Assembly (NCBI GenBank): GCA_030536165.1
Contig: JAUNQM010000001.1
Coordinates: 251 to 37,628 of the forward strand
Source: Prevotellaceae bacterium
GTDB lineage: Bacteria; Bacteroidota; Bacteroidia; Bacteroidales; Bacteroidaceae
DNA: 37,378 nt
Reading direction: 5' to 3'
Shown here piece by piece: positions 9,129-37,271 of this stretch. The notes beneath the pieces were generated by a model. That model had not been told where the DNA came from. It saw nothing but the letters and a program-made list of their open reading frames with translations, and made no database searches. The first letter of the stretch is position 1; each line of letters begins with the position of its first letter. The position numbers and the translations under genes were made by a program.

Positions 9129-9240
9129 TCTATTGCTACCAGTGGTTTCAGTCCAAGGACTTCAGTTATATATACAAAATATAGCCACTATAGAGACTTT
9201 AGCAACTATAGGGGCTATAGTTATAAACTTACAATCATTA

Positions 9241-12197: not shown

Positions 12198-12201
12198 ACG
12201 A

Positions 12202-13317: not shown

Positions 13318-13378
13318 TGTTCTTTATGTTTTTTTTTCGATATTTCGAGGTTTCGATGTTTCGGAGGGGTAAATGATT

Positions 13379-14647: not shown

Positions 14648-14714
14648 TGTATATTTTTTCAAAGTTCTAGATATTCTAGAGTTTCTATGGTTTCTAGTAG
14701 TTCTAGCCTCAATA

Positions 14715-15959
14715 TCATGAAATTCCAGCAAGGGCATCAACCAGTTTTACCGTCGTAGCTTTTTTTGCTGGTATATAGCCCGCAATCAGTCCGCAGACAA
14801 CCATTATCGCATTGGCAATCAATACCACCGATAGGTTGACCGTAGGATTGCAGAATATAGTGTTGTTCACTCCGAGTACTGAATCGGTTACGCCTTTAAG
14901 CAACTGCGTCAGCCCTACGCCTATCAGCATCCCGATATACCCGAATATTACGGTTATGACAACTGACTCGAACAAGACCAGACGTATTATCTCGCCCGAC
15001 GATGCCCCCATCGCCTTCCTCACTCCAAGCTCCTTGATGCGTTCCTTAACCGAAATCAGCATTATATTGCTTATACCTACAACGCCGATGCACAGGGTTG
15101 CCAGACCGATAATCCAGATAAAAATCCGCAGAGCATTCATCACATTGCGTATCTGGAGGAAAAACTCGAAGGAACTGTTTACCTTTACAGCCTTTTCATC
15201 CTTAGGCGAAAAGCCCTTGCTCTCAGCAAAAAACAACCGTATCGACTGCATAAACTTCTCGTTTGCCTCCTCCGTGTCGAGGTTGTCGGCAACGATACTA
15301 ATCGATGCCAGTTTGTCGTTGCGGAAGAAAAGATTCTTCACAGTGGTAATCGGAGCATACAGTGATTTCTCCTCGTCGTTGCCGCTATACGACTTCGCCA
15401 CACCGACTATCAGGAAGCTGTTGTTATATACCTTTATGCGCTGCCCTACGGCATCTGCGTCATGGAACAGACGTTTAGCCAGCGGAGCCGTGACCACACA
15501 CACCTTCCTGCCTTCGTTAATGTCGAGCTGGCTAATGTCGCGTCCATCCGAAACGTAACGGCTCCTCAAGCCTAAGTAGTCGGTCTCGTAGCCGAAGATA
15601 GGCACGTTTATGTGGTCGTTGCCACAGTTCACCTGCACCGTCGTGTCCATCTCTGGCATCGTCTTTCTTATCACGTCGGGGAATCGGCGTTGCAGCTCCT
15701 TGCAGTCAGAGAAGTAGAAGTCAACCTTCGACCCCACCTGTCTGCCACCAGCAGCATACATGGTCTTGCCTGGCGCGACGGTGATAATGTTATTGTCCGT
15801 GCCTATGAAACCATTCTCTATGCCATTGATGATGCCATTGCCCGAACCTAACATGACAATAAGCAGAAAGATTCCCCAACCCACCGAGAAACCAGTGAGG
15901 AGGATTCGCGTCTTATTATGACCCATCGACGACAATACTTCTGAAAGCATCTCTATCAT
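14715..15959 (-). CDS. ABC transporter permease (MacB/FtsX family)
   Basis: NKTRILLTGFSVGWGIFLL and GISNIMLISVKERIKELGVRKAMGA. Confidence 0.93.
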   Translation of the reverse strand: MIEMLSEVLSSMGHNKTRILLTGFSVGWGIFLLIVMLGSGNGIINGIENGFIGTDNNIITVAPGKTMYAAGGRQVGSKVDFYFSDCKELQRRFPDVIRKTMPEMDTTVQVNCGNDHINVPIFGYETDYLGLRSRYVSDGRDISQLDINEGRKVCVVTAPLAKRLFHDADAVGQRIKVYNNSFLIVGVAKSYSGNDEEKSLYAPITTVKNLFFRNDKLASISIVADNLDTEEANEKFMQSIRLFFAESKGFSPKDEKAVKVNSSFEFFLQIRNVMNALRIFIWIIGLATLCIGVVGISNIMLISVKERIKELGVRKAMGASSGEIIRLVLFESVVITVIFGYIGMLIGVGLTQLLKGVTDSVLGVNNTIFCNPTVNLSVVLIANAIMVVCGLIAGYIPAKKATTVKLVDALAGIS

Positions 15960-16076
15960 AGGCTGTTATCTTTTTTTTACGGTTTTGGGCTTTTGGTTTT
16001 AGGTTAAACCTACAACCTACAACCATCAACCTTTTTACGGTTTTTACTATTATCAAATTCTGTTGTCCATTATCTT

Positions 16077-16152
16077 AGCCTTCCACACCTTAGGTGTTTA
16101 GGCTGTCACACCTTAGGTGTTACAAGCTTCACACCTCAGGTGTGAAGGGCTG
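16077..16152 (-). repeat. Palindrome-array cassette copy 2 (3 x ACACCTNAGGTGT), inverted relative to copies 1 and 3
   Basis: Units at 16085, 16108 and 16131 with 10-nt spacers, flanked by AGCCTTCC...GAAGGGCTG. Confidence 0.9.
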
Positions 16153-16261
16153 ATTCTATTGATAGAGCCTAATTTCCATTCGGAAATATGGTTTTCTAAT
16201 CTCGTAATCATTTGATTTATACTAAATTCACATTGGTGTAAACAATGTCAACCTTAACGAA

Positions 16262-16939
16262 TCATTTCGCTCTTTCGTCTTTGAAGATTACGCCATCCTT
16301 GAAGAAAATACGACGGTCGGTCTGGTCGGCAATCTCTTGTTCGTGGGTGACGATGATGACCGTCTGACCGTTGTCACGATTCACGGCTCGCAGCATATCC
16401 ATCACCTCCTGAGTGGTCTTCGAGTCAAGAGCACCCGTAGGCTCATCGGCAAGGAGAATCTTTGGTTTCGTAATCAGCGCCCGTGCAATAGCCACACGTT
16501 GCCGCTGACCACCCGACATCTGCATCGGCAGATGGTTCCAATGCCCAGCGAGCCCTACCTTGTCAAGATATTCCAATGCCATCTCGTTGCGCTCCTTCCT
16601 GCCCACGCCCCTATAGTAGAGAGGCAGAGCAACGTTCTCCATCGCATTCTTGAAGTTGATGAGGTTAAACGACTGGAAGATGAATCCAATGAGCTCGTTA
16701 CGGTAACGACATTCCTGCGACTCGGTGAGATTCTTTATCAGATTCCCCGCCAGACGGTATTCCCCCTCATCGTAATTGTCGAGGATGCCCATGATGTTGA
16801 GCATTGTTGACTTTCCAGAACCCGACGGTCCCATGATGCTGACCAGTTCGCCTTCATCAATGTGGAGGTTCACACCCTTGAGCACATGCAGCGGCTGGGC
16901 TCCTGGATAAGTCTTATGTATTCCCTTGAGGTCTATCAT
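16262..16939 (-). CDS. ABC transporter ATP-binding protein (MacB/LolD-like)
   Basis: Walker A GPSGSGKS, signature MSGGQRQR, Walker B ILLADEPT and H-loop VTH. Its start overlaps the NRPS stop (ATGA at 16936-16939). Confidence 0.95.
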   Translation of the reverse strand: MIDLKGIHKTYPGAQPLHVLKGVNLHIDEGELVSIMGPSGSGKSTMLNIMGILDNYDEGEYRLAGNLIKNLTESQECRYRNELIGFIFQSFNLINFKNAMENVALPLYYRGVGRKERNEMALEYLDKVGLAGHWNHLPMQMSGGQRQRVAIARALITKPKILLADEPTGALDSKTTQEVMDMLRAVNRDNGQTVIIVTHEQEIADQTDRRIFFKDGVIFKDERAK

Positions 16940-19900
16940 TTTTTCGCCTTGTTATAGTCCTTGTTCACTATCTTTACGACGAAGTCAGAGTGTATGTCAG
17001 AGCAGACAATCTCGTCGTGAGTGCCTGGCAGGTCGTAAATCTTCAGGTTAGAACACTTCGACCGCCAGAAGTTTTTGTTTTCCTCTATGTCATGTCCCTC
17101 GCATATCGATGCAGCAAACAATACTGAATATCCGTCATAAGTAGGTATGACAGTATCCTTCGAAATCATACGCACGAAGCGCAGACGGTTCTTGAGGAAC
17201 TCAGGCAGGTCATCGTAGTTCAGTCCGTGTTCGTCAACTTCATCATACTCGTATGATTCCTTGAAAGTAACTTCAGGCCATGAATCGAGCATATATACCA
17301 ACGGATGACAACCTTCTGCATCATCCATAAGACGTGCCATCATCAGTGCGATTACTCCACCGAGACAGTAGCCAATGTATGCGAAAGGATGCACATCATC
17401 AGGCAAGTACAAGCCGATGATGTCATGGTAGAGTCCGACAATCTCGTTGAGTGAGTCTTCCGAGAACCCATACTCGGCAAAGTCGAATGTAGGCCAGAAG
17501 ATAAGCACGTTGAACGTCTTCGACAGTTCGTTCATCCTATATGTAAGATATTCCTGTGGCACCATACCGCAGATAGATACGATGACAGGCTTCGACTCAT
17601 CGTAAGGCATGTGCCAGTAGGCAAACGATTGCTGACCTGTGACGAGTTCACGTATGGTGCGCTTATTGATGAGGTCTTCTTTCGAGATATGTATTCCAGC
17701 ATCTTCGGAAGCTTTTATAAAGTCATCAACAAATGTGAAATTGTTTGCAATCGTGACAATATCGTGTACGACACTAATGTGGTCGTTACCAAGTAAGTCG
17801 CTTGCTATGTCAAGGAGTTTAGACTCAGTCTCGGAAGAAGGCGCAGTAGGGAGTTTGTTCTGTTCGCTCTCAATGAGTTGCTGAACGATGCGACGCGCTG
17901 TCTTTCCTTCGGTAATTGCACGGACAGTCAGCCACTTCAACCCTGACTGGAACTGAAGTTTGAGTGCTGCAAGCGATGTGCCGCCGAGGCGGAAGAAGTC
18001 GTCGTCGATACCTATTCGCTCCATCTGTAACACGACAGCCATAGCATCGCAGATGGCTTTTTCGGTCTCACTGCGAGGTGCTACATATTCCGTCTGCTTG
18101 ATGTCAGGCAATGGCAAAGCCTTGCGGTCAATCTTTCCGTTAGCATTGTAAGGCATGGCATCAAGCATGACGAATGCCTCTGGAATCATGAAGTGTGGCA
18201 GCGAGGATGATTCAAGAATGTTGCGCAACTGTTCTTCTTCAATGTTAACACCTTCGTTTACAGTATAGTAAAGCACCAGATGCTGCATTCCCGCAATATC
18301 CTTGACTACGGCAGCAACCTGATTGATGCCTTCGATAGCAAGAACCTGATTCTCTATCTCTCCGAGTTCGATACGCAATCCGCGCAGCTTCACCTGATTG
18401 TCGATACGTCCGAGGAACTCGATATTTCCATCTTCCGACCATCGCACAAGGTCGCCAGTGCGGTAAGCCTTCTTGCCATTGAAAGTGATAAACTTCTCTG
18501 CCGTAATGTCAGGGCGGTTGAGATATTCACGTCCAACACCAATGCCAGCAACAACAAGTTCGCCAGGCACACCACGTGGAACAAGTTGCATATTAGCATC
18601 AACCACATAGAGCTGATAGTTGTAGAGAGGGCGGCCTATGATTGACGTCTTACCATCGTAGTCGCCTTCCACCTTGAAGCAGGTAGAGTAGAGTGAGCAC
18701 TCGGTAGGACCGTAGCCGTTGTATATCGGATACGAAGCCTTCTTTGTCGGAGGCATCTTCTCGCCGCCAATCGTCATTGCCCTGAGATTGTTGTCAGGGA
18801 ACAGCGATGCTATCTGGCAGCCAATCTGAGTGGTGAAGAAGGCTACGGTTATGCCATTGTCGTTGATGTAGTTGTTAAGAGCATTGAAGTCCATACGCAC
18901 ACCCTCGGTAAGTATATGCAGTGTCGCACCCGAGAGCAGCGTAGGATATATGTCAATCATGTGGGCATCGAAACCGAAATTCGCGTATCCAGCAACCACG
19001 TCCGTCTCGTTCATCTGCAGCATATCCTTGTACCAGTGAGCATAGTTCACTATGCCATGATGTTCAAGCACGCATCCCTTAGGCATACCAGTAGAACCAG
19101 AGGTAAAGAGGATGACTGCTGCATCATTGGTCTTTGTGGTAACATTGAATCGACCCTCAAGTGCTGGCAAGGAATCCATATCGCGGTCGGAGACTATAAT
19201 GCCATCAAACTGTGGAAGAATGTTATTAGCAAGTTGCCCATGAGTAAGGATTACCTTTACGCCTGCATCCTTGCACATAAACATCAATCGGTCTTCAGGG
19301 AACTTGTTGTCGAGCGGCATATACGCACCGCCAGCCTTCATCACTGCCATTGAGTAGATGAGAATAAGTTCCGAACGGTTTATCATCAATCCTACCGCAC
19401 TCTCCCTGCCTACTCCAAGCGACTGGAGATAAGCAGCCAGACGGTCTGACAAATCATCCACCTCACGATAAGTATATTGACGTCCGTTGCAAACCACACA
19501 CACAGCATCAGGTGTCATGTCTGCCTGATGGCGCAACACATCGACCATCGTGTCGCTGTAGTCATATTCAAACTTCTCACCGCAACCGAGCGTCATAAGT
19601 TCCTCGACAGCTGCATCTGGCACAAGCTTCAGCATCGAGAGCTTAACGTCGCCCTGCTCTGCTATGTTCTTCAGCAATTCGTGCATCGTGTCGAGCACTT
19701 GCTTAATCTCATGTGCACGATACATAGAAGTGTCGTAACTCATGTTGAAACGCATCTTGGTCTTGGCATCGTTTATGCTCACACTGAAACTGAGTTCCGT
19801 GAACACTTCCTCGTTATAGTCATCGCCCGTAATCTTGAGTGCTACAGGCTCATCACCCTTCTTGTCGTCGTCAGGATAATTCTCAAAAGCCATGACCGAC

Positions 19901-22900
19901 TGGAACAACTCTGACTGTAACGACGTCTGGGCTATAATCTCCGACAACGGACAATAGTCGTGTTCATTCGTCTCGGCAGCCTGTGCCTGCACCTTCTTCA
20001 AGGCTTCCACCACCGTGTCGTTATAGTCGAACCGCACACGCACTGGAACTGAGTTGATGCAAAGTCCAACCACGCTGCTCAGGTTCACCGACGAGGTGTT
20101 ACGCCCCGATACCACCTTCACAAACACCGCATCCTGCGTGCGGTTATATACACCAAGCGTCATGCCCCATACCAGTTCCACGACTGAATTGAGCGTCACG
20201 CCTGCTTTCTCGCTGACGGCAACAAGCCCACTCATCACCTCTGGCTCAATGTCGAGAAGGGCATAGGCATCGTCGCTGCGTTCATCTTCCGCCACTACTC
20301 CCTGTGAAGGAACCACTGCCTTCTGCTCATAGTCGGCCAGCAACTCCCTCCAGTAGTCCATCGATGCCGAGCGGTTGCGCTTCGCAAGTTCGCGCACGTG
20401 CTGCTCATACACTCCAGCATTCTCATCCTCGATAGTGTCGATACTGATATTCGCTCCGTTCACAAGTCCGTCCGTGAGGTCGGCAAACACAAGATGCAGG
20501 CACCAGCCGTCGATGATGATATGGTGGAAGAACAGCATCAGCTTGCACGAGCCCTCGCCCGTCTTCACGCAGACTATGCGCATCAGCGCATCATCCTGAA
20601 GGTCGAAGCCTCGCTCGGTCTCTCTCTCGCGTACATTATCTATAAATGCATTCATGTCGTCAGCCTTCGTAGCATCTTCCATGATGACTGGTATCGTTCG
20701 GTCGGTCAATGCCTGGCGATAACTGCTCACGTCCTTATATATGAACGCCGTGGTGAGCACCTCGTGTCTGCCTGCCAGCACCCGTGCCGCCTTCTCCACC
20801 TGTTCCCTCGTCAGCAGGGCATCCACGTTCAGCTGATAGAAAATCCTGTAAGCCGCCGTGTCAGGCTCTGCCATCACCTTCAGCAGCATGCTCTCCTGCA
20901 TCGGCGTGAGCGGATAGATCCTGCGGATGCCGACTCCCTGTCGGCGCAGGGTGGCTTGCACTCTCTGGAACTCTTCGTCGCTCCATGCCGTCTCGCCCAG
21001 GTCGGAGGCTGTGACCTCTGCCTCTGCCACCTGCGAGGTGTGCTCAACAATCTTGCGTAACTCGTCCAAGTAGTATTCGTTCAGCCTGCCTATATCCTCG
21101 GCGGTGAACAGGGCTTTGTTGTAGAACACTCCATATTGCAACCTCCCCTCACTCACATATCCGTTGATAGAGATGTTTGTCACCATCGCATTGCGCACCG
21201 ACACGCCCGAACCGTGGGCAACACCTTCCTCAATAGCAAAGAAACCACCTTCCTCCATTCCCTGACCTTCATCGAAATTACCGTGATAGTTAAACCCCAC
21301 CATCGGCGCCTTGTGGTAGTCCATGCCAAAGAGCTGACCATAGCCTACTCCCTTGTTCGGTATGGCATGCAGTGTTTCCTTCGTTCGACGGATGTCGCTA
21401 CGCATATCACCGCCAAGACGGCTGAGTACAAGTGGGAACACTGAAGTGAACCAACCCACCGTGCGGTCTATCTCCAATGGCTCGTTGATGCTCTCCCTGC
21501 CATGACCCTCAAGCTGCACGGAGACATCTTCCCTCCCCGTCAACCGATAATATGCTCTGCCTAAGGCTGTGAGAAGTAGGTCGTTGATTTCCGTGTTGTA
21601 TGCCTGATTCGAGTTGTGGAGCAGTTTGTCTGTAGTGTCCTTATCAAGAGCCGCACTCGCAAAATCGAACTGGCGTGTGTAATCATCCACCTGCGAACCT
21701 TCCATGTCTTGCAGCTGAATTCTTACGTTTGTCCAGTAGTCTTTTTCAAGTCCAAGTTCGTAGCTCTGCTTATACCGCGCCATTGCCTCGGTATAATATT
21801 TATATGAATGAGTCTTTGCAGGAAGTTTAGGTTGCTTGCCTTTCAAGATTTCTGAATAGGCTATGTTGAAGTCTTCGACAATGATTCGCCACGATACTCC
21901 GTCAACCACCAAGTGGTGGATAATGATAAGCACATAGTCACATTCTTCGGCGTGGAAGACAGCAATACGCATCATATTGCCATTCTCTATGTCGAGTGTT
22001 GCCTGAAGGGTTGTGCCTATTTCGAGGATTTCATCCTTGTCGTCAACATTATATTCATATATATCATAGTATGCACAGCCGTTCTCATATTCTCGCACAT
22101 TAAGTCGGTTTTCTTTCACCTGTGCACGCAGCACGTCATGGTGTCTTACTATTTCGTCTGCACATGCTTTCAGTGTATTCATATCTATGCGGTCAGCACA
22201 GCGAAGCATTGTGTCTTGGTTGAAGTGCCAAGGCTCTGGCATATTCAGGTCGAAGAAATACTGCACAATAGCACTATTCTCTATTTCCCCGCTCCAGTTG
22301 TCTTGGTCTATCTTCATACTCTCATCGGTCTCGGTAGCTGCCGCTGCAATAGCCGCAACAGTCTTGAGGCTCATAATTTGAGCCACCTTGAGCGAGATAC
22401 CTTCTTGTCGCAGCATGCTGACCAGTCGGATTGCCTTGATGGAGTCGCCGCCGAGTGAGAAGAAGTTGTCGAGCACGCTGACAGGTGTTGTGAGGTTGAG
22501 CACATTGCTGAAGTATTGTGCCACAATCTTTTCTGCATCGGTCGTAGGCTCAACGAACTCCACTTCGCTGGCAATGACTGGCAGAGGGAGAGCTTTTCGG
22601 TTCACCTTTCCATTAGGAGTGAGAGGCAACTTATCGAGAGGAATGTATTGCGACGGCACCATAAATTCAGTGAGGTTTTCACCGAGATATGCCTTCAAAG
22701 CCTCTTCGTCGATAGCGGCATCTGCCACATAGTAGCAGCAGAGATGCTGGGCGCCATTCACTTCTTTGACATCGACAACAACCTGACGTACCCCATCGTA
22801 TTTTGCTGCCACAGCTTCAATTTCTCCGAGTTCGATACGAAGTCCACGCAGTTTCACCTGATTGTCGATACGTCCGAGGAATTCGATGTTGCCATCTTCC

Positions 22901-25578
22901 GTCCATCGCACGAGGTCGCCTGTGCGGTATGCTTTATGTCCGTCGATGGTGATGAACTTCTCGGCTGTTGTGTCAGGGCGGTTGAGATATTCCCGTCCAA
23001 CGCCGATGCCGCTTACCACCAGTTCGCCTGGCACGCCGCGCGGCACGAGGTTCATCGATGTGTCAACAATGTAGAGCTGGTAGTTGTCGAGAGGTCGTCC
23101 GATGACAGACCTGTCGGCAGAGAAGAAGGCTTCGTTTATCTTGTAGTAGGTAGAGAACAGCGAGCACTCCGTAGGGCCATACACATTATAGAAGCCATAG
23201 GCTGGTGTCTTCACAGGTGGCATCTTCTCTCCACCAGTGGCTACGGTGCGGAACGACTTATTGTCGAAGAGGGTTACCATCTGGCAACCTATCTGTGTGG
23301 TGAAGAAAGCCGTGGTGAGACCATTTGCCTCGATATAGTCGTTCATAGCCACCAAGTCCATACGCAGTTCTTCTGGCAGGATATGTACGGTACCGCCAGC
23401 GAGAAGGGTTGGATAGATGTCTATCATGTGGGCATCGAAACCGAAGTTAGCATATCCCACGCTTCGGCTCGTTGTGTCCATCTTCATCTCCTTTGCATAC
23501 CAATGGGCAAAGTTGACGATGCCGTGATGCTCGAGCACGCATCCCTTAGGCTTGCCGGTAGAGCCTGACGTAAAGAGGATGACGGCAGCATCGTCGGTCG
23601 TTGTCTCCACGACGAACGGAACGGCACAATCGGCAAGCGTTGTCAGTTGTTCAGACTGGAACACATTGCCCTCGAAGTGTGGCATGACGTTTTTCACCAG
23701 TTCGCCCTCCGTCAATATGAGTTTCACTCCAGCGTCCTCGCACATAAATGTGAGTCGGTCTTCAGGGAAATGAGGGTCGAGCGGCATGTAGGCGGCTCCT
23801 GCCTTCATGATAGCCATAGGATAGACGAGCATGAGTTCTGAGCGCTCTATCATCACGCCCACAGCCTGACCTCTGCCAACGCCGATGGTCTTGAGATGAT
23901 ATGCCAGGCGGTCGGTGATGTTGTCAACCTCGGCGTAGGTAAGCCGATGGTCTTTATATACTATAGCCGTAGCATCGGGGGTGATGGCTGTCTGCTGACG
24001 GAGAATATCGACCATTGTCGATGAGAAGTCGTAGTCGAGGCTATCGCCACATCCGAGAGCCTTCAGTACCTCTGCCTCATGACTGCCGACGAGGGTGATG
24101 CGGTTGAGAGTCGTGTCGTGCTCACACACCTGCGTTGCTATTGTGGCGTAGGCATTGATGAGACGGTTGATGTCAACGGCATTGTAGAGATTGGTGTCGT
24201 AGTCGATGTTAATCTCATATTTATCATTGCCCAGAGCCTCGACCTCGATGGTGATAGGGGTCTTGGTGGTGTCGAGTGAGAGAGATATGTTTTCTGATTT
24301 CACATTGCTTTCGGCTTCCTCCATGCCAGCACCGTCCTGATAGGCAAAGAGAATCTCAGGGCGCACACCATGACGCTCAACCATAGTGGTGAACGGATAG
24401 AAGTCGCGTTCTGCCACGTTGATATACTGCAAATGAGCTTTCTTGGCATAGTCGGCGAAAGACTCCGTCGCCATATTCGCACTCGTGAGGGTGCTTGTCA
24501 CAGGTAGTGTCTTGACAAACATACCCATGATGTCCATCATATCCATCGAGTTGCGTCCGTGGGAAATGGTGGTGTACATCACGTCGTCCTCGCGCGTCAC
24601 CTTGTGCAAGAGTAACGACAGGGCTGCGATGAAGAAGCTGTTTGGCGTGATGGTATGCTGACGGCAGTAGTCGCTTACAGCAATGTTGAGATTCTTGCGC
24701 ATGGTCTGGCTCTGCGTCTTCGACTCGTCAAGTTCTGGCGAGTGAGGGTACGACGTGGCAGTCTGACCGCTGAGCATTGAGTCGAAGAACACCTCAGCCT
24801 CGGCAAACTGTTCGCCCTGCTGGCGTGCAGATTCCTCGATTGAGAAGTCGTATGCAGTATAGGTCTCCTTCTGTATGGCGTTTCCCTCGTAGGCATCTTG
24901 AAGCTGCGACGAGAATATGCCCATCGATGCTCCGTCGAAGATGATGTGGTGTATATCTCGGAAAAGATATACCGCAGTTGGTGTCTGACAGACTACGATT
25001 CGATACAAGTTATCGTTGAACAGGTCGAATGGTTGCACCATTGCCTGGAAGAAACCTTTGTCGGGTTCCACCTTGAGGGTCTTGACTTCGACGACGGTCT
25101 CGGCATCATCCCTACGATGTTGCATCACTCCGTCGGCAGTCTCCTCCAGTCGCATCTTCAGGTATGGATGCGCATCAACAACGGTATGAAGGGCGCTGAC
25201 GAGCCTTTCCGCATCGATGCCCTCATAGCGTGTGAGGGTCGGGATGTTATACTGCGTGGTGTCGCGATTCAGTTCCCAGTCGGCATAGATGCCCAATTGG
25301 TTACCCGTGAGAGGGTAGTATTCCTGTTCGGTTTTAGGCTCTACGACTCCGAGTGAGGCAATGAAATCCTCCTGCGAGAAGTTGATCTCTCCGTCTTCGT
25401 CGCGGAAATAACCGTCGCCGAGGAGGTTCTCGTAGAGGGTTACGAGATTGTCCGTGTCGTTGAGCGACTCGTCAAAGTCCTCGAAGAGGAAGTTGATGCT
25501 GCCATCTTCATCCTTGAAGTAACCATCGTTGAGAAGGTTATCATAAAGGTTTCTTCTGTTTTGCTGTAGTTCTGTCAT
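16936..25578 (-). CDS. Non-ribosomal peptide synthetase 2: N-repeat-C-A-T-E-C-A-T-(pseudo-T)-TE
   Basis: C domains HHIIFDG and HHIIIDGWC; two A domains FTSGSTG(K/M)PKG/YGPTE; T domains LGGDSI and LGGTSL; E domain HHLVVDGVSW/EGHGRE/RTVGWFT; TE GYCLGG..PGTH. Start placed at ATG 25578 (MTELQQN) because it aligns with the NRPS1 N-terminus. Confidence 0.95.
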   Translation of the reverse strand: MTELQQNRRNLYDNLLNDGYFKDEDGSINFLFEDFDESLNDTDNLVTLYENLLGDGYFRDEDGEINFSQEDFIASLGVVEPKTEQEYYPLTGNQLGIYADWELNRDTTQYNIPTLTRYEGIDAERLVSALHTVVDAHPYLKMRLEETADGVMQHRRDDAETVVEVKTLKVEPDKGFFQAMVQPFDLFNDNLYRIVVCQTPTAVYLFRDIHHIIFDGASMGIFSSQLQDAYEGNAIQKETYTAYDFSIEESARQQGEQFAEAEVFFDSMLSGQTATSYPHSPELDESKTQSQTMRKNLNIAVSDYCRQHTITPNSFFIAALSLLLHKVTREDDVMYTTISHGRNSMDMMDIMGMFVKTLPVTSTLTSANMATESFADYAKKAHLQYINVAERDFYPFTTMVERHGVRPEILFAYQDGAGMEEAESNVKSENISLSLDTTKTPITIEVEALGNDKYEINIDYDTNLYNAVDINRLINAYATIATQVCEHDTTLNRITLVGSHEAEVLKALGCGDSLDYDFSSTMVDILRQQTAITPDATAIVYKDHRLTYAEVDNITDRLAYHLKTIGVGRGQAVGVMIERSELMLVYPMAIMKAGAAYMPLDPHFPEDRLTFMCEDAGVKLILTEGELVKNVMPHFEGNVFQSEQLTTLADCAVPFVVETTTDDAAVILFTSGSTGKPKGCVLEHHGIVNFAHWYAKEMKMDTTSRSVGYANFGFDAHMIDIYPTLLAGGTVHILPEELRMDLVAMNDYIEANGLTTAFFTTQIGCQMVTLFDNKSFRTVATGGEKMPPVKTPAYGFYNVYGPTECSLFSTYYKINEAFFSADRSVIGRPLDNYQLYIVDTSMNLVPRGVPGELVVSGIGVGREYLNRPDTTAEKFITIDGHKAYRTGDLVRWTEDGNIEFLGRIDNQVKLRGLRIELGEIEAVAAKYDGVRQVVVDVKEVNGAQHLCCYYVADAAIDEEALKAYLGENLTEFMVPSQYIPLDKLPLTPNGKVNRKALPLPVIASEVEFVEPTTDAEKIVAQYFSNVLNLTTPVSVLDNFFSLGGDSIKAIRLVSMLRQEGISLKVAQIMSLKTVAAIAAAATETDESMKIDQDNWSGEIENSAIVQYFFDLNMPEPWHFNQDTMLRCADRIDMNTLKACADEIVRHHDVLRAQVKENRLNVREYENGCAYYDIYEYNVDDKDEILEIGTTLQATLDIENGNMMRIAVFHAEECDYVLIIIHHLVVDGVSWRIIVEDFNIAYSEILKGKQPKLPAKTHSYKYYTEAMARYKQSYELGLEKDYWTNVRIQLQDMEGSQVDDYTRQFDFASAALDKDTTDKLLHNSNQAYNTEINDLLLTALGRAYYRLTGREDVSVQLEGHGRESINEPLEIDRTVGWFTSVFPLVLSRLGGDMRSDIRRTKETLHAIPNKGVGYGQLFGMDYHKAPMVGFNYHGNFDEGQGMEEGGFFAIEEGVAHGSGVSVRNAMVTNISINGYVSEGRLQYGVFYNKALFTAEDIGRLNEYYLDELRKIVEHTSQVAEAEVTASDLGETAWSDEEFQRVQATLRRQGVGIRRIYPLTPMQESMLLKVMAEPDTAAYRIFYQLNVDALLTREQVEKAARVLAGRHEVLTTAFIYKDVSSYRQALTDRTIPVIMEDATKADDMNAFIDNVRERETERGFDLQDDALMRIVCVKTGEGSCKLMLFFHHIIIDGWCLHLVFADLTDGLVNGANISIDTIEDENAGVYEQHVRELAKRNRSASMDYWRELLADYEQKAVVPSQGVVAEDERSDDAYALLDIEPEVMSGLVAVSEKAGVTLNSVVELVWGMTLGVYNRTQDAVFVKVVSGRNTSSVNLSSVVGLCINSVPVRVRFDYNDTVVEALKKVQAQAAETNEHDYCPLSEIIAQTSLQSELFQSVMAFENYPDDDKKGDEPVALKITGDDYNEEVFTELSFSVSINDAKTKMRFNMSYDTSMYRAHEIKQVLDTMHELLKNIAEQGDVKLSMLKLVPDAAVEELMTLGCGEKFEYDYSDTMVDVLRHQADMTPDAVCVVCNGRQYTYREVDDLSDRLAAYLQSLGVGRESAVGLMINRSELILIYSMAVMKAGGAYMPLDNKFPEDRLMFMCKDAGVKVILTHGQLANNILPQFDGIIVSDRDMDSLPALEGRFNVTTKTNDAAVILFTSGSTGMPKGCVLEHHGIVNYAHWYKDMLQMNETDVVAGYANFGFDAHMIDIYPTLLSGATLHILTEGVRMDFNALNNYINDNGITVAFFTTQIGCQIASLFPDNNLRAMTIGGEKMPPTKKASYPIYNGYGPTECSLYSTCFKVEGDYDGKTSIIGRPLYNYQLYVVDANMQLVPRGVPGELVVAGIGVGREYLNRPDITAEKFITFNGKKAYRTGDLVRWSEDGNIEFLGRIDNQVKLRGLRIELGEIENQVLAIEGINQVAAVVKDIAGMQHLVLYYTVNEGVNIEEEQLRNILESSSLPHFMIPEAFVMLDAMPYNANGKIDRKALPLPDIKQTEYVAPRSETEKAICDAMAVVLQMERIGIDDDFFRLGGTSLAALKLQFQSGLKWLTVRAITEGKTARRIVQQLIESEQNKLPTAPSSETESKLLDIASDLLGNDHISVVHDIVTIANNFTFVDDFIKASEDAGIHISKEDLINKRTIRELVTGQQSFAYWHMPYDESKPVIVSICGMVPQEYLTYRMNELSKTFNVLIFWPTFDFAEYGFSEDSLNEIVGLYHDIIGLYLPDDVHPFAYIGYCLGGVIALMMARLMDDAEGCHPLVYMLDSWPEVTFKESYEYDEVDEHGLNYDDLPEFLKNRLRFVRMISKDTVIPTYDGYSVLFAASICEGHDIEENKNFWRSKCSNLKIYDLPGTHDEIVCSDIHSDFVVKIVNKDYNKAKK

Positions 25579-25682
25579 ACTGCTATTATGTTCTGTTATT
25601 GTTGGTTCTCCATGCTGTTGAGGCTCGCCCCAAATTGTAAATTGTAAATGGTAAATGGTACATGTATTGGTCCTCCGACTAT

Positions 25683-25876
25683 GACTCATCGTATATCATC
25701 AATCGAGTCGTCGTATTGCCTTACTTTACACGTCCGTTTAACTCGGAAAAAGTTTTGCAAAACTTCAGTCAAAGTTTTGCAAAACTTCCGTCGAAGTTTT
25801 TCAAAACTTTTTGCGAGTATTAACGACGTGTGAAGCGACGACTAACGACGAGTGTTGTGTCGCATATTGACGAGTC
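25683..25876. repeat. Inverted-repeat cassette with 3 x AAGTTTTGCAAAACTT palindromes at 22-bp period
   Basis: Units at 25750, 25772 and 25794 (third has one mismatch). Arms CTTTACACGTCCGTTTAACTCGGAAA / TTTGCGAGTATTAACGACGTGTGAAG, plus outer AGTCGTCG/CGACGACT. Confidence 0.85.
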
Positions 25877-25920
25877 GATAATTTTTATGGTTCAAGCTTC
25901 TGCCCTGATACGCCCAAAGC

Positions 25921-28900
25921 CTATTTCGACAATGGGTTTTTCTTCAGAGGATTCGCCTTCGGAGCCAATGGGTTTGGCTTCGCTGCCAGTGGGTTAGCCT
26001 TTGGTGCTCCCGAAGGTTGTGGAGTTTCGCTGCGCTTATTAAACAATGCGTTGGTCTTTGGTGCCGCAGTTTTTTCTGCGCTGCGCTCGACGAGATTTGC
26101 TATCTGTCGTATGGTCGGAGCCTTCATTATGTCAGCCACAGTGACTCTGACGTTGTGCCCCTGAGTGATTGCCATCGACAATCGCATAGCCAGAAGCGAC
26201 GTGAGTCCGAGTGAAAGCAGGTTGCTCTGCACGCTGATGCGCTCAACCTTGAGCATTTCTTCGAGTCCTTCAGCCAATCGACGTTCGATGTCGTTGGATG
26301 GTGCTATGTACTCGTCGGCTGCGATTTCTGGCTCTGGAAGTGCCCGACGGTTGATTTTTCCGTTAGGGAGTCGTGGCATTTCGTCGAGTTTCATGTATGC
26401 TGAAGGGTACATATAGTCAGGGAGTGCAGATGCTTCTACCACCTTCATGATGTCGGTATCGGTAGTAGCGGCATCGACAACAGTGTAATAGAGGGCTATC
26501 ATTGCTGTTCCGTTGACTTTCTTCACGGCAGCTACGACCTCGTTGATACCTTGCGTAGCCATTGCCACACTCTCGATTTCGCCGAGTTCGATACGATAGC
26601 CACGCACCTTGACCTGTCCGTCGATACGTCCGAGACAAAGCAACTGACCGTTGTCGTCGTAGCGTGCGAGGTCGCCAGTGTGATAGAGTCGTACTGGTGT
26701 GCCGTTGATGTTTTTATCTACAAACGGACAGTCGCCATATACTTTTGCTGTCTGCTCTGGCAGATGCCAATAGCCAACGCCGACCTGAATACCCGCGATG
26801 CAGAGTTCGCCTATTGCACCGTAAGGCACGAGTCGTCCGTGATTATCGACGATGAAGCACCAGCTGTTTGCTACCACGTGTCCGATAGGTATGTCGGCAT
26901 ATTCCTTGTTTTCTTCCATAGGGAACACGCTGATGTGGTCGGTACATTCCGTCGGGCCATAGAAGTTTAGTATCTGTGCCTTGCGTGATATGACGCCTGT
27001 GAGCTTCTCTCCGATGGCACTGATGTAGCGCACAGGGAGCTCGAAGTTATTGGCAATGAGTGCTGCGATGGATGTTGTGTATCCTCCACCAGTGATGTTG
27101 TGGCGCACGACGAAGTCATAAACAGCCTGCAAGTCTTTGCGTATTGACGATGGCATGATGTGCAGACTACCGCCGAGAAGTAGTATTGGGTAGAGGTCTT
27201 CGATATGGCTATCGAATGAGAATGAGCGGTGCGAGCTGATGCGGTCGGATGGTGTGAGCTGCAGTTCTTCCGTCGTAGAGAGGATGTAGCTCATGAGTCC
27301 GAGGTGATGGAGCACGACGCCCTTTGGCTTGCCTGTTGAGCCAGACGTGTATATTATATATGTGTAGCAGTCCGGTGTGCAGAGGTTGATAGGCTTGTAG
27401 TCTTCTGTCCAGTCTATTTCGTCGAGGAAGAGGATCTTGCCGTTGTCAAGCATTGTCTGCAACATGTCGAAGCCTGCTGTCCCACGTTTCGTGTCGAAGA
27501 CGTCGTGGGTGGTGATGAGTATTGGTGCTTCGCTGTTTTCGAGCATATAAGCCAGTCGCTCTACAGGGTATTCGAGGTCGAGAGGCAAGTATGCCGCCGC
27601 TGCCTTGTGGATGGCAAATACGGATGTAGGGAAGTCGATGCTTCGCTCAATCATCACACCGATGAAACTCTGCTTGTGCGCACCCTTTTCTATGAGTTTA
27701 TGCGCGAGCAGGTTGGAGCGATGTTCGAGTTCGGCGTATGTGAGTTGGCGTGTGTCGTCGTCAACAGCGAGATTGTCAGGCACCTCGTGAGCCTTCGCGA
27801 TGAAGTAGTCGAGATACGTCTTAGAATAATCAAACGGCATATCCTTGCCTTTCGAGAGACGTATGACCTCAGCCTTGTCGGCTTCAGACATGAGCGATGT
27901 CTCTGCCACCTTGCTGTCTATTGCCGATGGCAGGCTGGTGAGCAGATGCTGCATGGTCTGCATGACGGTCTGCATGCGACGGTCGGAATAGAGGTTGCCG
28001 TCGTACATCATGTTTATGCTCATCGACATGTTTGCATCGTCGAGGGCTATGACGAGACGCAGTTCGTTGAATATCTCTTCATCGTTCTGGAGCGGACGGA
28101 TGTTCATCTTTTCGCCGATAGCGTTGACGGTATCCTTACCAGCGTAGTTCTCGAAGATGAGAGTGCTCTGGAGCAGGTTGCTGCGGAGCGACGACTGCTG
28201 CTGTATCTCTGCCAGTGAGCAGTAGTCGTGGGCTGCCGAGTCGGCTGCCTGCTGCTGCAATGACTGGAGCGCAGAGAGGACGGTCGTATTGTCTTCGGTG
28301 CGCACTCGTACTGGTATAGTATTGATAAAGAGTCCGACGAGGTCGGCAACGTCGCCATGATTTCGCCCAGACACGACCTTTCCGAATATAGCGTCGGAGT
28401 TGTTGTTGAATATGTGGAGAGTTGTTCCCCATACGTATTCCATGATGGTGTTGAGCGTTATCTGATGACGGCTGCAGATGTCGTGCAGCTGCTGCATTGT
28501 ATCGCTGTCGATGTCGAGCGTCAGGCTCCGTGCTATGCGTACAGCCTCTGTCTCTGGCTTGTAGGAATATGGGATGATGGCTTTGTCGGTATAGTCGGCC
28601 ATCAGTTCTTTCCAGTAGGCGAGTGACGACTTCTTGTCGAACGCGAGGAGGTTGCGCACCGCTTCCTCATATCTGCCCGATGCGGCGGCGACGATAGGAT
28701 GCTCGTTGCCAGCCATTGCGTCGAGGAGGGCGCCGAGGAAGTCTTGGAAGTAGATAGGTTGGCACCATCCGTCGATGATGATGTGATGGGTGATTAGGAG
28801 TATGTGGCACGAAGTGTCGGAAGTCTTTAGCACCACTACGCGATAGAGTGGTGACGACTGGAGGTCGAACGATGCAGCCAGTTCCTCACGGTGTATGCGC

Positions 28901-31900
28901 TCGGATGTGGCAAGGATGTCGCCCTCGTAGGATATGTCGATATATCGGAGACCGAGCTTTCGGTCGATGATAGCCTGGCAAGGAGCATCGACGCCGCGAT
29001 AGATGATGGAGGTGCGGAACACCTCGTGCTTGGCGGCGATGACGTCGAGGGCATAGCGCACCTGCTGCTCGGTAGGCAGAATGCTCAGCTCGTAGCGGTT
29101 GATGAGCACGTAGGCAGAGGTCTTAGGGTCGTTCATATACTCAAGGAGTATGCCCTCCTGCATAGGGGTGAGAGGGTAGATGCGCTGTATGGTCTCGCCA
29201 CGATCGGCATATTGCCGGCTGATGCTCTCATACTGAGCGTCGGTCCAGCCAATGGCACCGAGGTCGGAAGCCGTAGGCTCGGTAGCCTTCACTGAAAGGG
29301 TGTGGCTCACTATCTCCTCAAGCTGACGGCAGAAACCGTCGGCAATGGCGCGGGCTTGCTGAGGGGTATATACCTTTGTGTCGTAATCGACATTGATGTC
29401 GAACACTCCTTCGATGATGGTGCAGTTAATCATATAGGTGACACCCGTCTCGCCCTCGGTGTTGACGGAGAGCCCCGTATCGACAGCGTCGGCAATCTTG
29501 AAGTCGCCCATAGTGTCGGCAGACTTCACGTCGCCGAGGTAGTTGAAGCCGAGACACTCGGTGAGGTCGGTGCGGAGGTTGGTGTCGTCGTCGAGCGATG
29601 GGATATATTGCAGTATGCCATAGCCGAGACCCTTGTTAGGCACAGCGCGGAAGGTCTCTTTCACGAGACGTACATCGTGGCGGACATCGCCGTTGAGTCC
29701 TTCGACCACGACAGGATACATAGAGGTGAACCAGCCGACGGTGCGGTCGGTGACCAAAGGTTCGTGGATAGGTTCGCGACCGTGCCCCTCCATCATAAGG
29801 CTTGCACTGTCGTTGCCAGTCACGTTGCGGTAACTGCGCAGGAAGGCAGCGATGAGGAGGTCGTTCTCCGTAGTGTTGTAGGCATCGTGGGCATCGGTGA
29901 GAAGATGCGACAGACAGTCGTTGCTATACTGGATATTGAATCGGCTGAAATGCTCTGCGCTGCCACCGCCTTGAGGCAGGGTGGTCATCTTCCTCTGCAC
30001 ATTCTCCCAGTAAGGCTTTTCGAGACTGAGCTTATAGCTGTCGCGATAGCGCTGGATGGCTTCGGTATAATATTTGAACGAGTGGGTCTTTTTAGGCAGG
30101 GAAACCTCCTTGCCGGCAATAAGCTGGTTGTAGGCGAGGATAAGGTCTTCGGTGATAACTCGCCACGACACTCCATCCACTGCCATGTGGTGGCAGATGA
30201 GCACGAGGACATCGCTTGCTGGAAGATGATATACCCCGACCTTCATCACAGGGCCATGCCTGAGGTCGATAGCGGCATGCATCTTTCCTGCATGTTCGGT
30301 TATCTCGTCCTTGCTGCTGATGGTGAGTTCTGCGAAATTGTAAAGAGTGTGGTCGGTGTCGTTGATAAAGATTTTGCCATCTTCTGCCCTCATGCGGAGC
30401 ATATCATGATGTATTGCCACTGCATCTAAGCTCTTGCATAGTGCATCGATGTTGATAGGCGTAGCCGATTCGATAGCCACACTCTGGTTGAAGTGTTCGG
30501 CGTGAGGCAGGTTCATATTGAAGAAATAACGCTGGATAGCACCAGGGAGAATTTCGCCTGTGACAGTCTCTTGGGCGATATTGCTTTCTGCACCTATCTC
30601 AGCCGAAGCAGCGATAGCCTTTACCGTCTTATGCTTCATCACGTCAGCCACGGTGAGCTGTATGCCTTTTTGCCGCAACATGCTCACCAGGCGGATAGAC
30701 TTGATAGAGTCGCCGCCGAGCGAGAAGAAGTTGTCCATTGCTCCCACCTTGCTGTCAGTGTTCAGTACCTGTGATATACATTCAGCCACGGCAATCTCTT
30801 TCTCGCCAACAGGCTCAACATATTCCGTCTGCTCTATCACTGGTTCAGGCAGTGCCTTCGTGTTTACCTTGCCGTTAGGAGTCAGTGGCATCTCGTCGAG
30901 TTGCATATATACATCTGGCACCATATAGTCTGTGAGCTGGGCTGAAAGGTGTTCATCCAGCGATGCTGTGTCGATGTTTGTGTCGGCAGAATAGTATGCA
31001 ACAAGATGCTGCACACCATTGACAGTTTTTACCAATACCTTTACGAGCTGAACGCCGCCATAGCTTGCTATCTGCGACTCAATCTCGCCAAGCTCGATGC
31101 GGAAACCACGGAGTTTCACCTGTGAGTCGATACGTCCGAGGTATTCCAACTGCCCTTCTTCGTTGTAGCGAACGAGGTCGCCAGTGTGATATACTTTCAC
31201 ATTCTTGCCGCCGATGAGGAGAGTATTGAATTTTTCTTCGGTCAAATCCTGTCGGTTCCAGTAACCTGCTGCCATCTGTATTCCTGCCATACAGAGTTCT
31301 CCTGCAACACCGTCTGGCATCAGATTGCCGTATTTATCAACGACGTATGCTGCCGTATTGTCCAACGGACGACCGATAGGGATATTGCTGTATTCGCGGT
31401 TTGGTTCGAGTTTGTAGATAGTGGCATCTACGGTAAACTCGGTAGGACCATAGGAATTATACAAATCGCACTTGCAAGGCAGGTTCATGGTCATCTTTTC
31501 GCCACCCACATTGAAGTAGTCTAACTCCATGTCAGGATATTGCTGGAGCAGGAGCATACCAAACTGTGTAGAGTAGCCGCCGCCCGTAATGCCGTTGTCG
31601 ATGATAAACGAATGCAGTACGTCGATGTCCTTTCTTGCCTCCTGTGGAACTACATACAGAGTACCTCCGACTGTCAGAACAGGGTATAAGTCTTCAACCG
31701 AAGCATCGAACGAGAACGATGAGTGGCAACAGATGCGGCTGTTCTCAGTGTGGTGGAATAGCTTGGCAATGAAGTGTATGAAGCTTGTCTTTGCACGGTG
31801 AGGAATCATCACACCCTTCGGCTTTCCTGTTGAGCCAGAGGTGTAAATCATATAGGCAAGACCGTCTGGGGTGGCAAGGTTAAGGGTTTCTGGTTTCAGG

Positions 31901-34900
31901 TTTTTTGTTTCAGTTTTCAGGTCATCGATGAAGATGATATTCTTTGCCGTGAAGTCATCGCCTTGTGAAGTTTTCTCATTATATATATTATGCGATGTGA
32001 TGAGCACTTGGCTCTCGCTATCCTCAAGCATATAGAGCAGACGGTCGTTAGGATAGTCGTAGTCTAACGGCACGTAAGCATATCCTGCACGCTCAACGGC
32101 AAGTGCTGCAACGAGGAAGTTTATCTCGTAGCCAAGCATGATGCTCATAAACGGATGCTGACCAGTATTCTCACCTACGGTGTCTAACAGTTTCTTTGCG
32201 AGTGCATTTGAGAGGGCATCCAACTCTCCGTAAGTATAGCTGCTCTTACCATCAGATACAGCCACAACATCCTTTCTCCTTTCAGCCTGAGCAAGGAAGA
32301 GGCTGACAAAGGTGTCGTTCTTGTCATATACAAGTTCATCACCTTGCGACTGACGGATAATTCTCTCTGCTTCTGACGCAGAAATCAGTGGCACGGCAGT
32401 AGCTACATTGCCCTTCACACAATTCTCAGCAAATGTCTTGAATGCCATGCTCAGTGTCTCCATGTCTTTACGATTGTAGATAGTGGCATCGTATTCAAGG
32501 AAACTCTGATATTCTCCCTTGTCATTGCTAAGTATCGTGATTGAGAGAGGGTTCTTTGCTGTATCCCAGTTTAGGTTGCCATAGTTACCAGCCTGATTGT
32601 CTAAGACAATGTCGGTTTCCAAGTCAACGAAATAGTTATATACGATATTGACACCGATGTCGTGGCGGGCAACCATTTCTTCGAATGGATAGAAATCGTT
32701 GTCGATGGTGTTACGCATTTGCGTATCGATGTCCTTCACTATCTCCGCCATCGGACGCTTGAAGTCTGTGCATACTGATGGCAGCGTCTTCACGAATACA
32801 CCAAAGAAATTATCGAGTTTCAGTTCTGCACGACCATTGCTGATGAAGTGGATGAGAGTCTTGTCCTCACGCGTCAGACGATGAAGCACGGCATGGAACA
32901 CGCTCATAAAGAAACTGCTCGGCAGCAAAAGGTTCTCCTTGCAATACTTGTTTATTTCTGCGGAAACGATGTCGGTGCTGATTGTGTCGTAGCGTTTTCC
33001 TTCGTCGAGTGTTGACGAGTGTGGATAGTCTGTTGTTTCCACACCGTCTAAGAGCGTATCGAAATACGTTTCAGCCTCCTTGCCTCGTTCCGACTCGATA
33101 AGTTCCTTCTCGTCGATTGCACGGTCGTATGCCGTATATACTTCCTTCTCCAATGGCTTCCCCTCAAAGGCTTTCTTCAGTTCGAAGGCAAGCACCTGGT
33201 TACTCGTACCGTCGCTTATCAGGTGGTGAATGTCGATAAGGAGCGATGTCTCGTTCTTGTAATGGAAGATAGTGAAACGGTAGAGTGGGTCATTCATCAA
33301 GTCGAATGGTCGCACCTGACTCTGGAAGAATGCTTCATCAGGGCGAGTGTCGAGTGTCACTTCCGTGATGATAGGCTCGAGGGTGTCGTCTCTGTGCTGC
33401 ATCACCTCGCCATCGTGCTCCTTCAGTCGGCAGTTGAGGTATGGATGTGCGTAGAATACTTCCTTGACAGCGTTGATAAGGCGATTGGAATCTACGTCAA
33501 CGAATGTGGAAACACTCGGAATGTTATACATGATAGCATCAGGATGCACGATGCAGTCGAAATACATACCCTTCTGCGTCTCGCTCATAGGATACCATTC
33601 GCGCATCTCGTGTGGCTGGAGCGGATTCTCCTCTGCAACCACGATGCCGTATGCCGTCTTTACCAACTGACTAATCACTGGGTGCTTCATTATGTCGCGC
33701 GTAGAAAGCTGTATATCGTTACGTGCGAAGATGGCAGACAGACGTATGGCTGCGATAGAACTGAGTCCTACCGACACAAGGTTTGTCTCAACGCCAAACT
33801 CCTTCGTGCCGAGCATCTCGGCTATGAGGTTCCACATCTTCTGTTCCTGCTCATTGCGAGGCATCACTATCTCCTCGGCCTTCATCTGTGGCTCTGGCAA
33901 TGCCTTGACGTTGGTCTTACCGTTTGGAGTCAGCGGCACTTCGTCTATCTGCATATAGATGTCTGGTATCATATATTCTGCCAGCGACGTGCCACGCAGA
34001 GCCTCCTCTATCTTCTCGGCAGTGATAGCCGCACCATCGGCCACTGTATAATAGAGTATCAGATGGTCCATACCGCTAATCTTTTTCACCACGGCAATGG
34101 CCTTCTGTATTCCTTCTATGGTTTCAGCCTGCGTCTCAATCTCTCCGAGTTCCACGCGGAAACCATTTATCTTTACTTGGTTGTCGATACGTCCGAGTAT
34201 CTCCACCTCTCCGTCGGCAGTCCAGCGTGCAAGGTCGCCTGAACGATATACGCGCACTCCGTTGTACTCAACAAATCGCTCCGCCGTCATCTCTGGCAGG
34301 TTGTTGTAGCCGCGTGCCACACCAGGACCGCCAATGAGCAGTTCGCCAGCAATGCCGATTGGCACTTCACGGTCGAACTTATCGACTATGTACTCTACAT
34401 AGTTGAGCAGCGGCCTACCTACCGTCACACGCTTTGCATTCGTAAGGTTGGCTATGTTTGATGAAACGGTAATCTCCGTTGGTCCGTATGTATTGATAAT
34501 CTCAACCCCCAGCGACTGCAACTTCTCCAACAGCGACTGAGGATACATCTCACCGCCCGACCATACCATCTTGCACCTGCTGATTGCATCGCAGAACTCT
34601 GGCAACTCCAGATAACTCTGAATACGTGAGCACGTGCCGTTGATAGCCTCCGCGCCTGTCTCGTTCATGAGTTTTGCAAGGAGTATAGGGTCTATCACCT
34701 CCTGCTCGTCGGCAAGCACGGTCGTGATGCCGTTGTAGAGTGAGCCTGCAAACTCCTTCAGCGACATGTCGAACGACAATGTGGTAATCGACACGTATGT
34801 CTTCACGCCAAGACGCTTCAACCCTGCAATATGAACATTTGCCGGATGGTTATACAGGTAGTTAGTGATACCCACATGTCGCAGCATCACTCCCTTTGGC

Positions 34901-36954: not shown

Positions 36955-37060
36955 ACTTTTTTATGTATATGTGTTGTTTTGTCGTGCTATCTCCTTTCAT
37001 CGCTCGTGCTTAACACGAGGGGGCAGTCGGGAGGGAATTTTTTTCACTCTTTGTGAAATT

Positions 37061-37130
37061 TTTTGCCAAAATGCAGGACTTTTTTTGCAAAATGGCTCAT
37101 ATTTGCGCGCGCGTAATTTAATAAGGTGTA
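37061..37130 (+). repeat. Dispersed GCAGGACTTTTTT..GGCTCAT..GCGCGCGTA..AATAAGGT element
   Basis: Colinear match to 4361-4433. Confidence 0.7.
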
Positions 37131-37170
37131 TCGCGGCATTTTATGGTCGATAATCAGTCATCAATAAAAT

Positions 37171-37271
37171 CAGCCCTTCACACCTGAGGAGTGACAAGCG
37201 TAACACCTAAGGTGTGACCACCCCTAACACCTGAGGTGTGACGGCAGAAACACCTAAGGTGTGGAGGGCTG
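37171..37271 (+). repeat. Palindrome-array cassette copy 3 (4 x ACACCTNAGGTGT)
   Basis: Units at 37180 (one mismatch), 37203, 37227 and 37250 with 10/11/10-nt spacers, flanked by CAGCCCTTC...GGAGGGCTG. Confidence 0.9.

Follow-up and report, generated by a model that had tools for sequence, protein, structure and literature searches.

A repeated basic tail and an acidic twin-repeat domain as a probable new docking pair of Bacteroidota nonribosomal peptide synthetases

How do the subunits of a nonribosomal peptide synthetase (NRPS) line up in the right order when each is encoded by its own gene? The question is raised by a stretch of 37,378 nucleotides (the window) from a Prevotellaceae bacterium, which encodes two such subunits, NRPS1 and NRPS2, each opening with two acidic repeats directly before a condensation (C) domain. 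The original prediction took this N-terminal segment for a candidate new docking domain. We found that the upstream subunit ends in repeated basic N-P-L/F motifs and that tail and domain are reciprocally distributed, both of which support that reading at the level of sequence. We consider it quite likely that the twin-repeat domain binds the repeated basic NP[LF] tail of the preceding subunit and so docks successive NRPS subunits, the binding itself being predicted. The two elements probably form a new class of docking pair for NRPSs; they are complementary, lie at upstream C-termini and downstream N-termini, and are missing where the line begins and ends. The tail motif and a homology with phage proteins are additions to what had been predicted.

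Both NRPS1 and NRPS2 carry the motif [LF]YxxL[LI]xDGYF at residues 11 and 48, giving a period of 37 residues. The positions and sequences of the twin-repeat starts were thus predicted correctly (Table 1), as were the four copies and their period, with the second repeat of NRPS1 shorter by one residue. A looser six-frame motif scan of the whole genome (2.47 Mb) returned these four copies and none besides. Pairwise, the four repeat units share 14-22 of 37 residues, and the real score was unreached by 1000 shuffles in all six pairings. Residues L15, F35, Y49, N51 and F72 are invariant in the domain, and a DxDG acidic loop is present in 31 of 32 domain rows. Among 11 orthologues, identity to NRPS2 is 76% in the domain, 70% in the following C domain and 14% in the linker. 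The C domains behind the two segments had been described as closely related, which holds for their first ~25 residues; overall they are 36% identical, as compared to 37% between the first C domain of NRPS2 and the second of NRPS1. An AlphaFold2 model built from the 32 rows (predicted local distance difference test (pLDDT) 88, predicted template modelling score (pTM) 0.72) has helices at residues 3-17, 32-38, 42-54 and 69-76 together with short hairpins, with only single bridges as beta contacts. The segment of 2x37 residues is therefore predicted to be a small acidic four-helix domain composed of two helix-hairpin-helix repeats.

The check for a known family gave no confident match in Pfam, NCBIfam, the PDB or Foldseek. 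Neither segment matched a Pfam entry at E<=1, PHROGs and NCBIfam searches yielded nothing credible (NCBIfam one sub-threshold match to RNA polymerase delta), and sequence searches of the PDB reached a best E of 0.2-1.4, again nothing credible. With the domain model, Foldseek found no match in the PDB (best E 4.7), and the VIA fold search found no clear solved fold (best Z 5.0, root-mean-square deviation (rmsd) 3.2, 68 residues aligned); neither a beta-hairpin docking domain nor an EH domain was among the 50 matches listed in the fold searches. An ESM Atlas search with the homologue P0030 gave no usable match.

The proposed partner is the low-complexity tail that ends NRPS1, with about one Pro per 7 residues. 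We tabulated the gene upstream of the domain at 32 domain-bearing loci (L003-L033 and L039, leaving out L034-L036 and L038). An NRPS lies upstream at 28 of these, and 27 of the 28 terminate in 2-8 [ND]P[LFM] motifs within the last 75 aa (25 distinct tails). The 99 motif copies yield the consensus K-x-N-P-[LF]-x-K-[KR]. Outside the table, L035 and L038 have 5 motifs each. Within the genome, only one of 1241 open reading frames (ORFs) has at least 2 motif copies, and it is NRPS1. When 66 distinct NRPS C-termini were compared, the motif was present in 30 and absent from all 29 thioesterase-like ends, judged as such by eye, and from all 7 fragments. Tail and domain charges are complementary, the domains ranging from -2 to -17 (32 rows) and the tails from +4 to +9 (19 rows). 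A tree of 25 domains requires 3 changes of tail type, and none of 500 shuffles was as low; we do not take this as evidence of co-evolution, since labels are common to kin and that of one domain was deduced from contig C185, described below. An ordering code of Leu versus Phe tails may exist and is a lead only.

A profile of 8 segments was searched against 1.84 billion representative proteins and gave 39 matches. Three low-complexity artefacts (P0043, P0048 and P0051) were dropped; 33 matches are NRPS-type, several of them fragments, and 3 are non-NRPS proteins with E values of about 1e-4. Confinement to NRPS N-termini, the pattern to be checked under the original prediction, applies to 32 of the 33 NRPS-type matches, at the extreme N-terminus, and does not extend to the 3 non-NRPS proteins and the phage homologues described below. 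The domain is rare: a GTDB scan contained 14 loci, titled Prevotella, Prevotellaceae, Bacteroides, Bacteroidaceae or Cryptobacteroides, 17 metagenome loci carry the NRPS-type domain, and it occurs in 5/400 genomes of the genus. It was not found in the viral contigs searched, in 100 drawn relatives, or in a further 35 genomes of the order that have C domains, where the two weak matches are non-NRPS. Every non-first NRPS subunit seen is headed by the domain, and first subunits begin directly at the C domain (6/6: L011, L016, L031-L033 and C185, four of which are near-orthologues). Middle subunits (NRPS1, P0042, P0044 and P0046) have both domain and tail. In 20 regions from 15 of the 35 domain-less genomes, no tail had at least 2 motifs, and three subunits there use TubC_N; this outside control is weak because many of its NRPSs are single genes.

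Since NRPS1 itself starts with the domain, a further upstream partner had been predicted for it, and a candidate was found. Contig C185 (G000:C185) encodes NRPS0, an NRPS of 2561 aa that does not carry the domain and is cut by the contig end at its first DPF motif. In L016 and L031-L033, a gene lying 15 bp before the NRPS1 orthologue has a product 51-56% identical to NRPS0, with a tail of 3-4 DPF/NPF motifs. NRPS0 is thus predicted to be the subunit preceding NRPS1, the join being drawn from synteny in the four relatives, and a line of NRPS0, NRPS1 and NRPS2 would have seven modules. A dispersed repeat beside NRPS1 (Table 1) is likely the reason that NRPS0 is on a separate contig. The first C domain of NRPS0, within residues 1-450, is unmatched by the HHxxxDG patterns used and may be degenerate or starter-type.

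The same elements occur at other cuts in the assembly line. P0040, P0170, P0171 and P0175 are stand-alone proteins of 168-169 aa that consist of the domain, a peptidyl carrier protein (PCP) domain and a terminal NPLF; P0170 was seen on 6 contigs and P0171 on 3. P0038 consists of the domain, a C domain and an adenylation (A) domain with terminal NPF, without a carrier, and in P0035 and P0173 the domain is preceded in frame by an A-domain end with NPF or NLF, which may be a natural fusion or may result from the calling of the genes. The pair therefore appears at both A/T and T/C cuts (T, thiolation or carrier domain), independent of the C domain.

Two proteins, P0055 and P0056, match the phage family phrog_24532 (E 5e-15 and 0.008), which occurs in 5/300 genomes of the family. 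The phrog_24532 model was not among the direct matches of the segments at E<=10 and has 0 matches in this genome, so the link between NRPS and phage requires a profile-profile comparison. By hhalign, the NRPS domain aligns with the phage profile over both repeats at 98.6% with all 8 rows, and at 95.7% with the 5 rows not found via the NRPS search (score 44.9, as compared to <=18.6 for 100 column shuffles and 12.8 reversed), for a family that was itself selected because P0055 matched it. The phage profile recovers both NRPS starts (E 3e-9 and 1e-8 per genome). From these comparisons of sequence profiles, we conclude that the NRPS domain and the N-terminal repeat found in polyvalent or virion proteins of Bacteroidota phages are homologous. 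The phage form is without the DxDG hairpin; its model (pLDDT 86) has four predicted helices in the same order as the NRPS-domain model, and the VIA fold search with it gave a best Z of 4.3. The top match of the NRPS-domain model in BFVD is a giant viral protein (template modelling (TM) score 0.61, rmsd 2.0) at a non-significant E of 1.9, and the top BFVD matches differ between the two models. The phage alignment had no credible match in Pfam or the PDB. The phage-type repeat is N-terminal in 73/112 further matches, some long ones of which contain Kinase-PolyVal and LPD13 domains, and it starts the 'DarB-like' protein of Bacteroides phage BKO1-TP3 (gp55) and 'structural proteins' of Cellulophaga phages (phi46:3 gp119, phi19:3 gp128). 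Phage polyvalent proteins are located among virion genes, according to the part of PMC5512222 that describes their setting. The docking module is likely of phage origin, judging by this homology; the phage form is far more widespread, which suggests that the transfer went from phage to NRPS.

Some of the phage-type proteins have other layouts (L069 and L067 among the loci). The repeat is behind a signal- or lipoprotein-like N-terminus in P0068 (165 aa) and beside an aspartyl-protease-like domain in P0133, and some of the proteins with an internal or C-terminal repeat carry 2-4 copies. Signal-bearing repeat proteins could act as decoys against incoming phage proteins. In phi46:3 (L117:8968-13607) and phi19:3 (L118:5968-11903) the annotation makes the repeat a structural protein of its own, 102 aa long, directly before the giant gene, and the frame of the repeat runs past a KKK run into unrelated-looking residues; L115 and L116 look similar. 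The continuation in L117 and L118 may reflect a frameshift that joins the repeat to the giant protein.

In the proposed mechanism, the N-terminal domain would bind the K-x-N-P-[L/F]-x-K-[K/R] motifs with which the preceding subunit terminates, and the binding would keep the PCP of one subunit beside the C domain of the next. The Asn-Pro turn may insert its Leu or Phe into a pocket of invariant Leu, Tyr and Phe residues, the flanking Lys/Arg would pair with the acidic DxDG hairpins, and multiple motif copies would provide avidity. F-type tails (NRPS0 to NRPS1) versus L-type tails (NRPS1 to NRPS2) may fix the order NRPS0-NRPS1-NRPS2. The module would have come from Bacteroidota phages, in which its role may be to link a virion protein with the giant polyvalent protein of the neighbouring gene. 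A more specific version, to which we give somewhat less than an even chance, is that a phage head-to-tail linker, composed of a basic NP[LFM] array that ends one virion protein and the twin-repeat domain that opens the giant polyvalent protein, was captured by Bacteroidota NRPS genes as a 'tail-stop-start-domain' cassette, which would allow T/C or A/T cuts without loss of function, with copy number tuning the affinity and Leu versus Phe setting the order.

Several observations weigh against docking by this pair. Four of the 32 loci are without an upstream NRPS; in L013 and L029 the contig ends within 450 bp, and L028 and L030 have ~2.5 kb of other genes upstream. The L039 tail is basic with NLF and is without NP[LFM]. 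There is no overlap between the ends of C185 and C94, so that the link of NRPS0 to NRPS1 rests on synteny and not on an assembled join. On the phage side, 57 loci gave 53 upstream genes and 18 distinct tails. That 10 of these tails have two [NS]P[LFMT] motifs in the last 30 aa, as compared to 1/1241 genome ORFs, speaks for the pair; against it, the motif was relaxed to this form after the tails were seen, the 10 come from only 3 lineages (L065 with NPM twice, L070 with SPM and NPM, and eight from one SPT lineage), and the other 8 tails are without the doubled motif. In 39/112 further matches, many with signal-like N-termini, the phage-type repeat lies inside the protein or at its C-terminus, and it therefore has uses other than head-to-tail docking. 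Finally, the loci were chosen by the domain and are kin, and tail and domain could have co-travelled by descent. The ends might then be an inherited phage gene boundary, copied along with whole junctions and doing little, while the subunits meet via PCP-C contacts or COM-like elements. All loci are indeed related Bacteroidota clusters, the phage homologue is genuine, and tail length and copy number vary freely. An inert boundary is nevertheless very unlikely: the domain is better conserved than the catalytic C domain, the 99 motif copies are kept while the spacers change, no tail is present on any of the 29 subunits that end in a thioesterase (TE), and the pair is retained at both ends of a 169-aa carrier protein.

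The loci without an NRPS directly upstream (L028 and L030) would also suit a module for localisation or oligomerisation, with a common partner such as the exporter, the membrane or itself, and with the tail binding something else, such as the membrane or a C domain. The presence of the repeat in signal-bearing and membrane proteins, at times in 2-4 copies, and the exporter that follows the cluster point the same way. This reading leaves unexplained why first subunits are without the domain (6/6) and last subunits without the tail (29/29), and it does not account for the split A/T arrangement; we regard it as unlikely, and the localisation and the iterative or oligomeric alternatives raised in the original prediction are less favoured than docking. 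Calcium is the basis of another alternative, in which the repeats are a degenerate EF-hand pair, similar to an EH domain, whose Ca2+ binding would control the synthetase or gate its contact with the tail. The spacing of EF-hands is close to the 37-residue period, the acidic DxDG loop is conserved in 31/32 rows, and the best PDB profile match is calcineurin B, at a non-significant E of 0.26. NPF and DPF are ligands of EH domains in the account given in part of PMC8927860. The VIA fold search scored EF-hand proteins at no more than Z 3.2 (rmsd 3.8 over 75 residues), the Foldseek match to parvalbumin has an E of 9.8, and the phage homologues are without the acidic loop altogether. The canonical 12-residue Ca2+ loop is present in 0/32 rows, as is Trp, and we find an EF-hand pair hardly credible.

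Docking by the twin-repeat domain and tail can be set beside the few NRPS docking classes, COM, PAX and beta-hairpin, that are named in the relevant part of PMC9113145. The closest in layout is the pair of short linear motif (SLiM) and beta-hairpin domain (TubC_N, PF18563; TubB/C, EpoA/B, Kj12 and Bamb_5915), in which a disordered post-carrier motif meets a small N-terminal domain before C, and which in the same partial account is portable between junction types and charge-guided (PMC9113145). The TubC_N fold is alpha-beta-beta-alpha-alpha, as compared to the two helix-hairpin-helix repeats predicted here. The TubC_N donor is described there as one SLiM of <15 aa whose last five residues form the binding strand (PMC9113145), unlike the ~45-aa tail here with its 2-8 basic NP[LFM] copies. 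COM and PAX resemble our pair in that they, too, sit at subunit ends and connect NRPS subunits in trans; in that source, COM is placed at E/C junctions (E, epimerisation domain) with a donor helix and a hand built into the C domain, and PAX has a single helix in its N-terminal part and two in its C-terminal part (PMC9113145). The original exclusion of TubC_N, COM and PCP was borne out at the level of sequence and junction type. TubC_N gave no Pfam match at E<=1 and an hhalign probability of 0.1% against three members, and neither segment matched PF00550, the PCP family. COM does not fit, in that NRPS1 ends with T and a Pro-rich tail and the junctions are T/C or A/T. PAX was rejected on the four predicted helices in two repeats of the N-terminal part and on the Pro-rich tail.

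The phage twin repeats share with the NRPS domain the LYxxLxxxY...F repeat, the N-terminal position, four predicted helices and often a basic doubled motif that ends the upstream gene; the NRPS version differs in a 7-residue acidic DxDG hairpin per repeat and in a period of 37 versus ~29-35 in the phages. The phage family has no Pfam entry and no known function. EH domains are likewise small and helical, and bind multi-copy NPF/DPF motifs with avidity from repeats; they are EF-hand pairs of ~100 aa whose NPF pocket contains a conserved Trp, as far as PMC8927860 covers them in its relevant part. The segment is 75 aa, without Trp or a canonical EF loop in 32 rows, and the likeness is at most convergence. 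Many NRPS clusters of rumen Bacteroidaceae have been reported, and the part of that report at hand does not mention docking (PMC8241843). The literature searched by title and start of abstract held no description of the domain, subscription journals and the LPD1-40 alignments (PMC5512222) being outside its scope.

Docking domains are the main tools to split and rewire NRPS assembly lines. If the docking model is true, a 75-aa acceptor and a 6-residue repeatable motif would be an orthogonal, tunable part at T/C and A/T junctions, and the subunit order of uncharacterised gut and rumen Bacteroidota NRPS clusters could be read off their sequences. The homology with phage proteins suggests where a docking domain may have come from, an origin open to test, and gives a first idea of what the unannotated domain heading giant phage polyvalent proteins might do. 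If the cassette version is true, the virion domain would gain a function, the chaining of ejected proteins, and its signal-bearing copies would be possible superinfection decoys.

Table 1. Coordinates in the window of the NRPS genes, their proposed docking elements and neighbouring features.
Feature	Position	Strand	Description
NRPS1	25921..36954 (36954-25921)	-	3677 aa; N-domain-C-A-T-C-A-T-E-C-A-T-tail (motif positions)
NRPS1 acceptor domain (proposed)	36727..36954	-	residues 1-76; repeat 1 36826-36936, repeat 2 36727-36825; net charge -10
Last carrier (PCP) domain of NRPS1	26080..26298	-	immediately precedes C-terminal tail
NRPS1 C-terminal tail	25924..26058	-	last 45 aa, basic, low-complexity, net +8; proposed donor docking motif
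Conserved ALFxKR-type motif in NRPS1 tail	26041-26052		
Four NPL motifs in NRPS1 tail	25987-25995, 25966-25974, 25945-25953, 25930-25938	-	
NRPS1-NRPS2 spacer	25579..25920	.	342 bp; 2-4 bp in orthologous loci
NRPS2	16936..25578 (25578-16936)	-	2880 aa; N-domain-C-A-T-E-C-A-T-TE; without tail motif
NRPS2 acceptor domain (proposed)	25348..25578	-	residues 1-77; repeat 1 25450-25560, repeat 2 25348-25449; net charge -16
Five-gene exporter	10857..16939	-	ATP-binding subunit, two permeases, membrane-fusion protein, outer-membrane channel
Dispersed palindromic repeat	37036..37282	.	between NRPS1 and contig end; on many contigs of the genome

The domain orders in Table 1 follow motif positions, and the E domains of NRPS1 and NRPS2 are presumed from position and motif. 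The ORF finder places the NRPS2 start at 25689, while the orthologues indicate the Met at 25578, several having a stop 2-4 bases before it. In the stretch of NRPS2 from residue ~2580 to 2880 (window 16936-18000), a helical part that looks like the remnant of a carrier without its Ser separates the last PCP from the thioesterase, whose motif, G-Y-C-L-G-G, has Cys instead of Ser. A 22-bp tandem repeat at 25749-25809, inside the spacer, differs from the dispersed palindromic repeat, which has a 23-bp tandem unit and occurs three times in the window (37036-37282, 16084-16143 and 4197-4280).

The first gene of the exporter overlaps the NRPS2 stop, and exporter genes are likewise downstream in L003, L005, L017, L018 and L027; the exporter likely exports the NRPS product. 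The labels of its genes are putative, assigned by motif in the translations. At L011 (449-2218), L016 (601-2268) and L031-L033, a gene for a 555-589-aa protein, which we take to be MATE-like and membrane-bound, precedes the first NRPS subunit. In L010, a 298-aa gene (613-1509), presumably arginase-like by its motif, is inserted between the tail-bearing and domain-bearing NRPS genes, and tail and N-domain are both retained. Downstream of the cluster, the window contains what we take, from their motifs, to be the housekeeping rod-shape operon genes mreB, mreC, mreD, PBP2 and rodA (4463-10263), and a large glycoside hydrolase at 2-3790.

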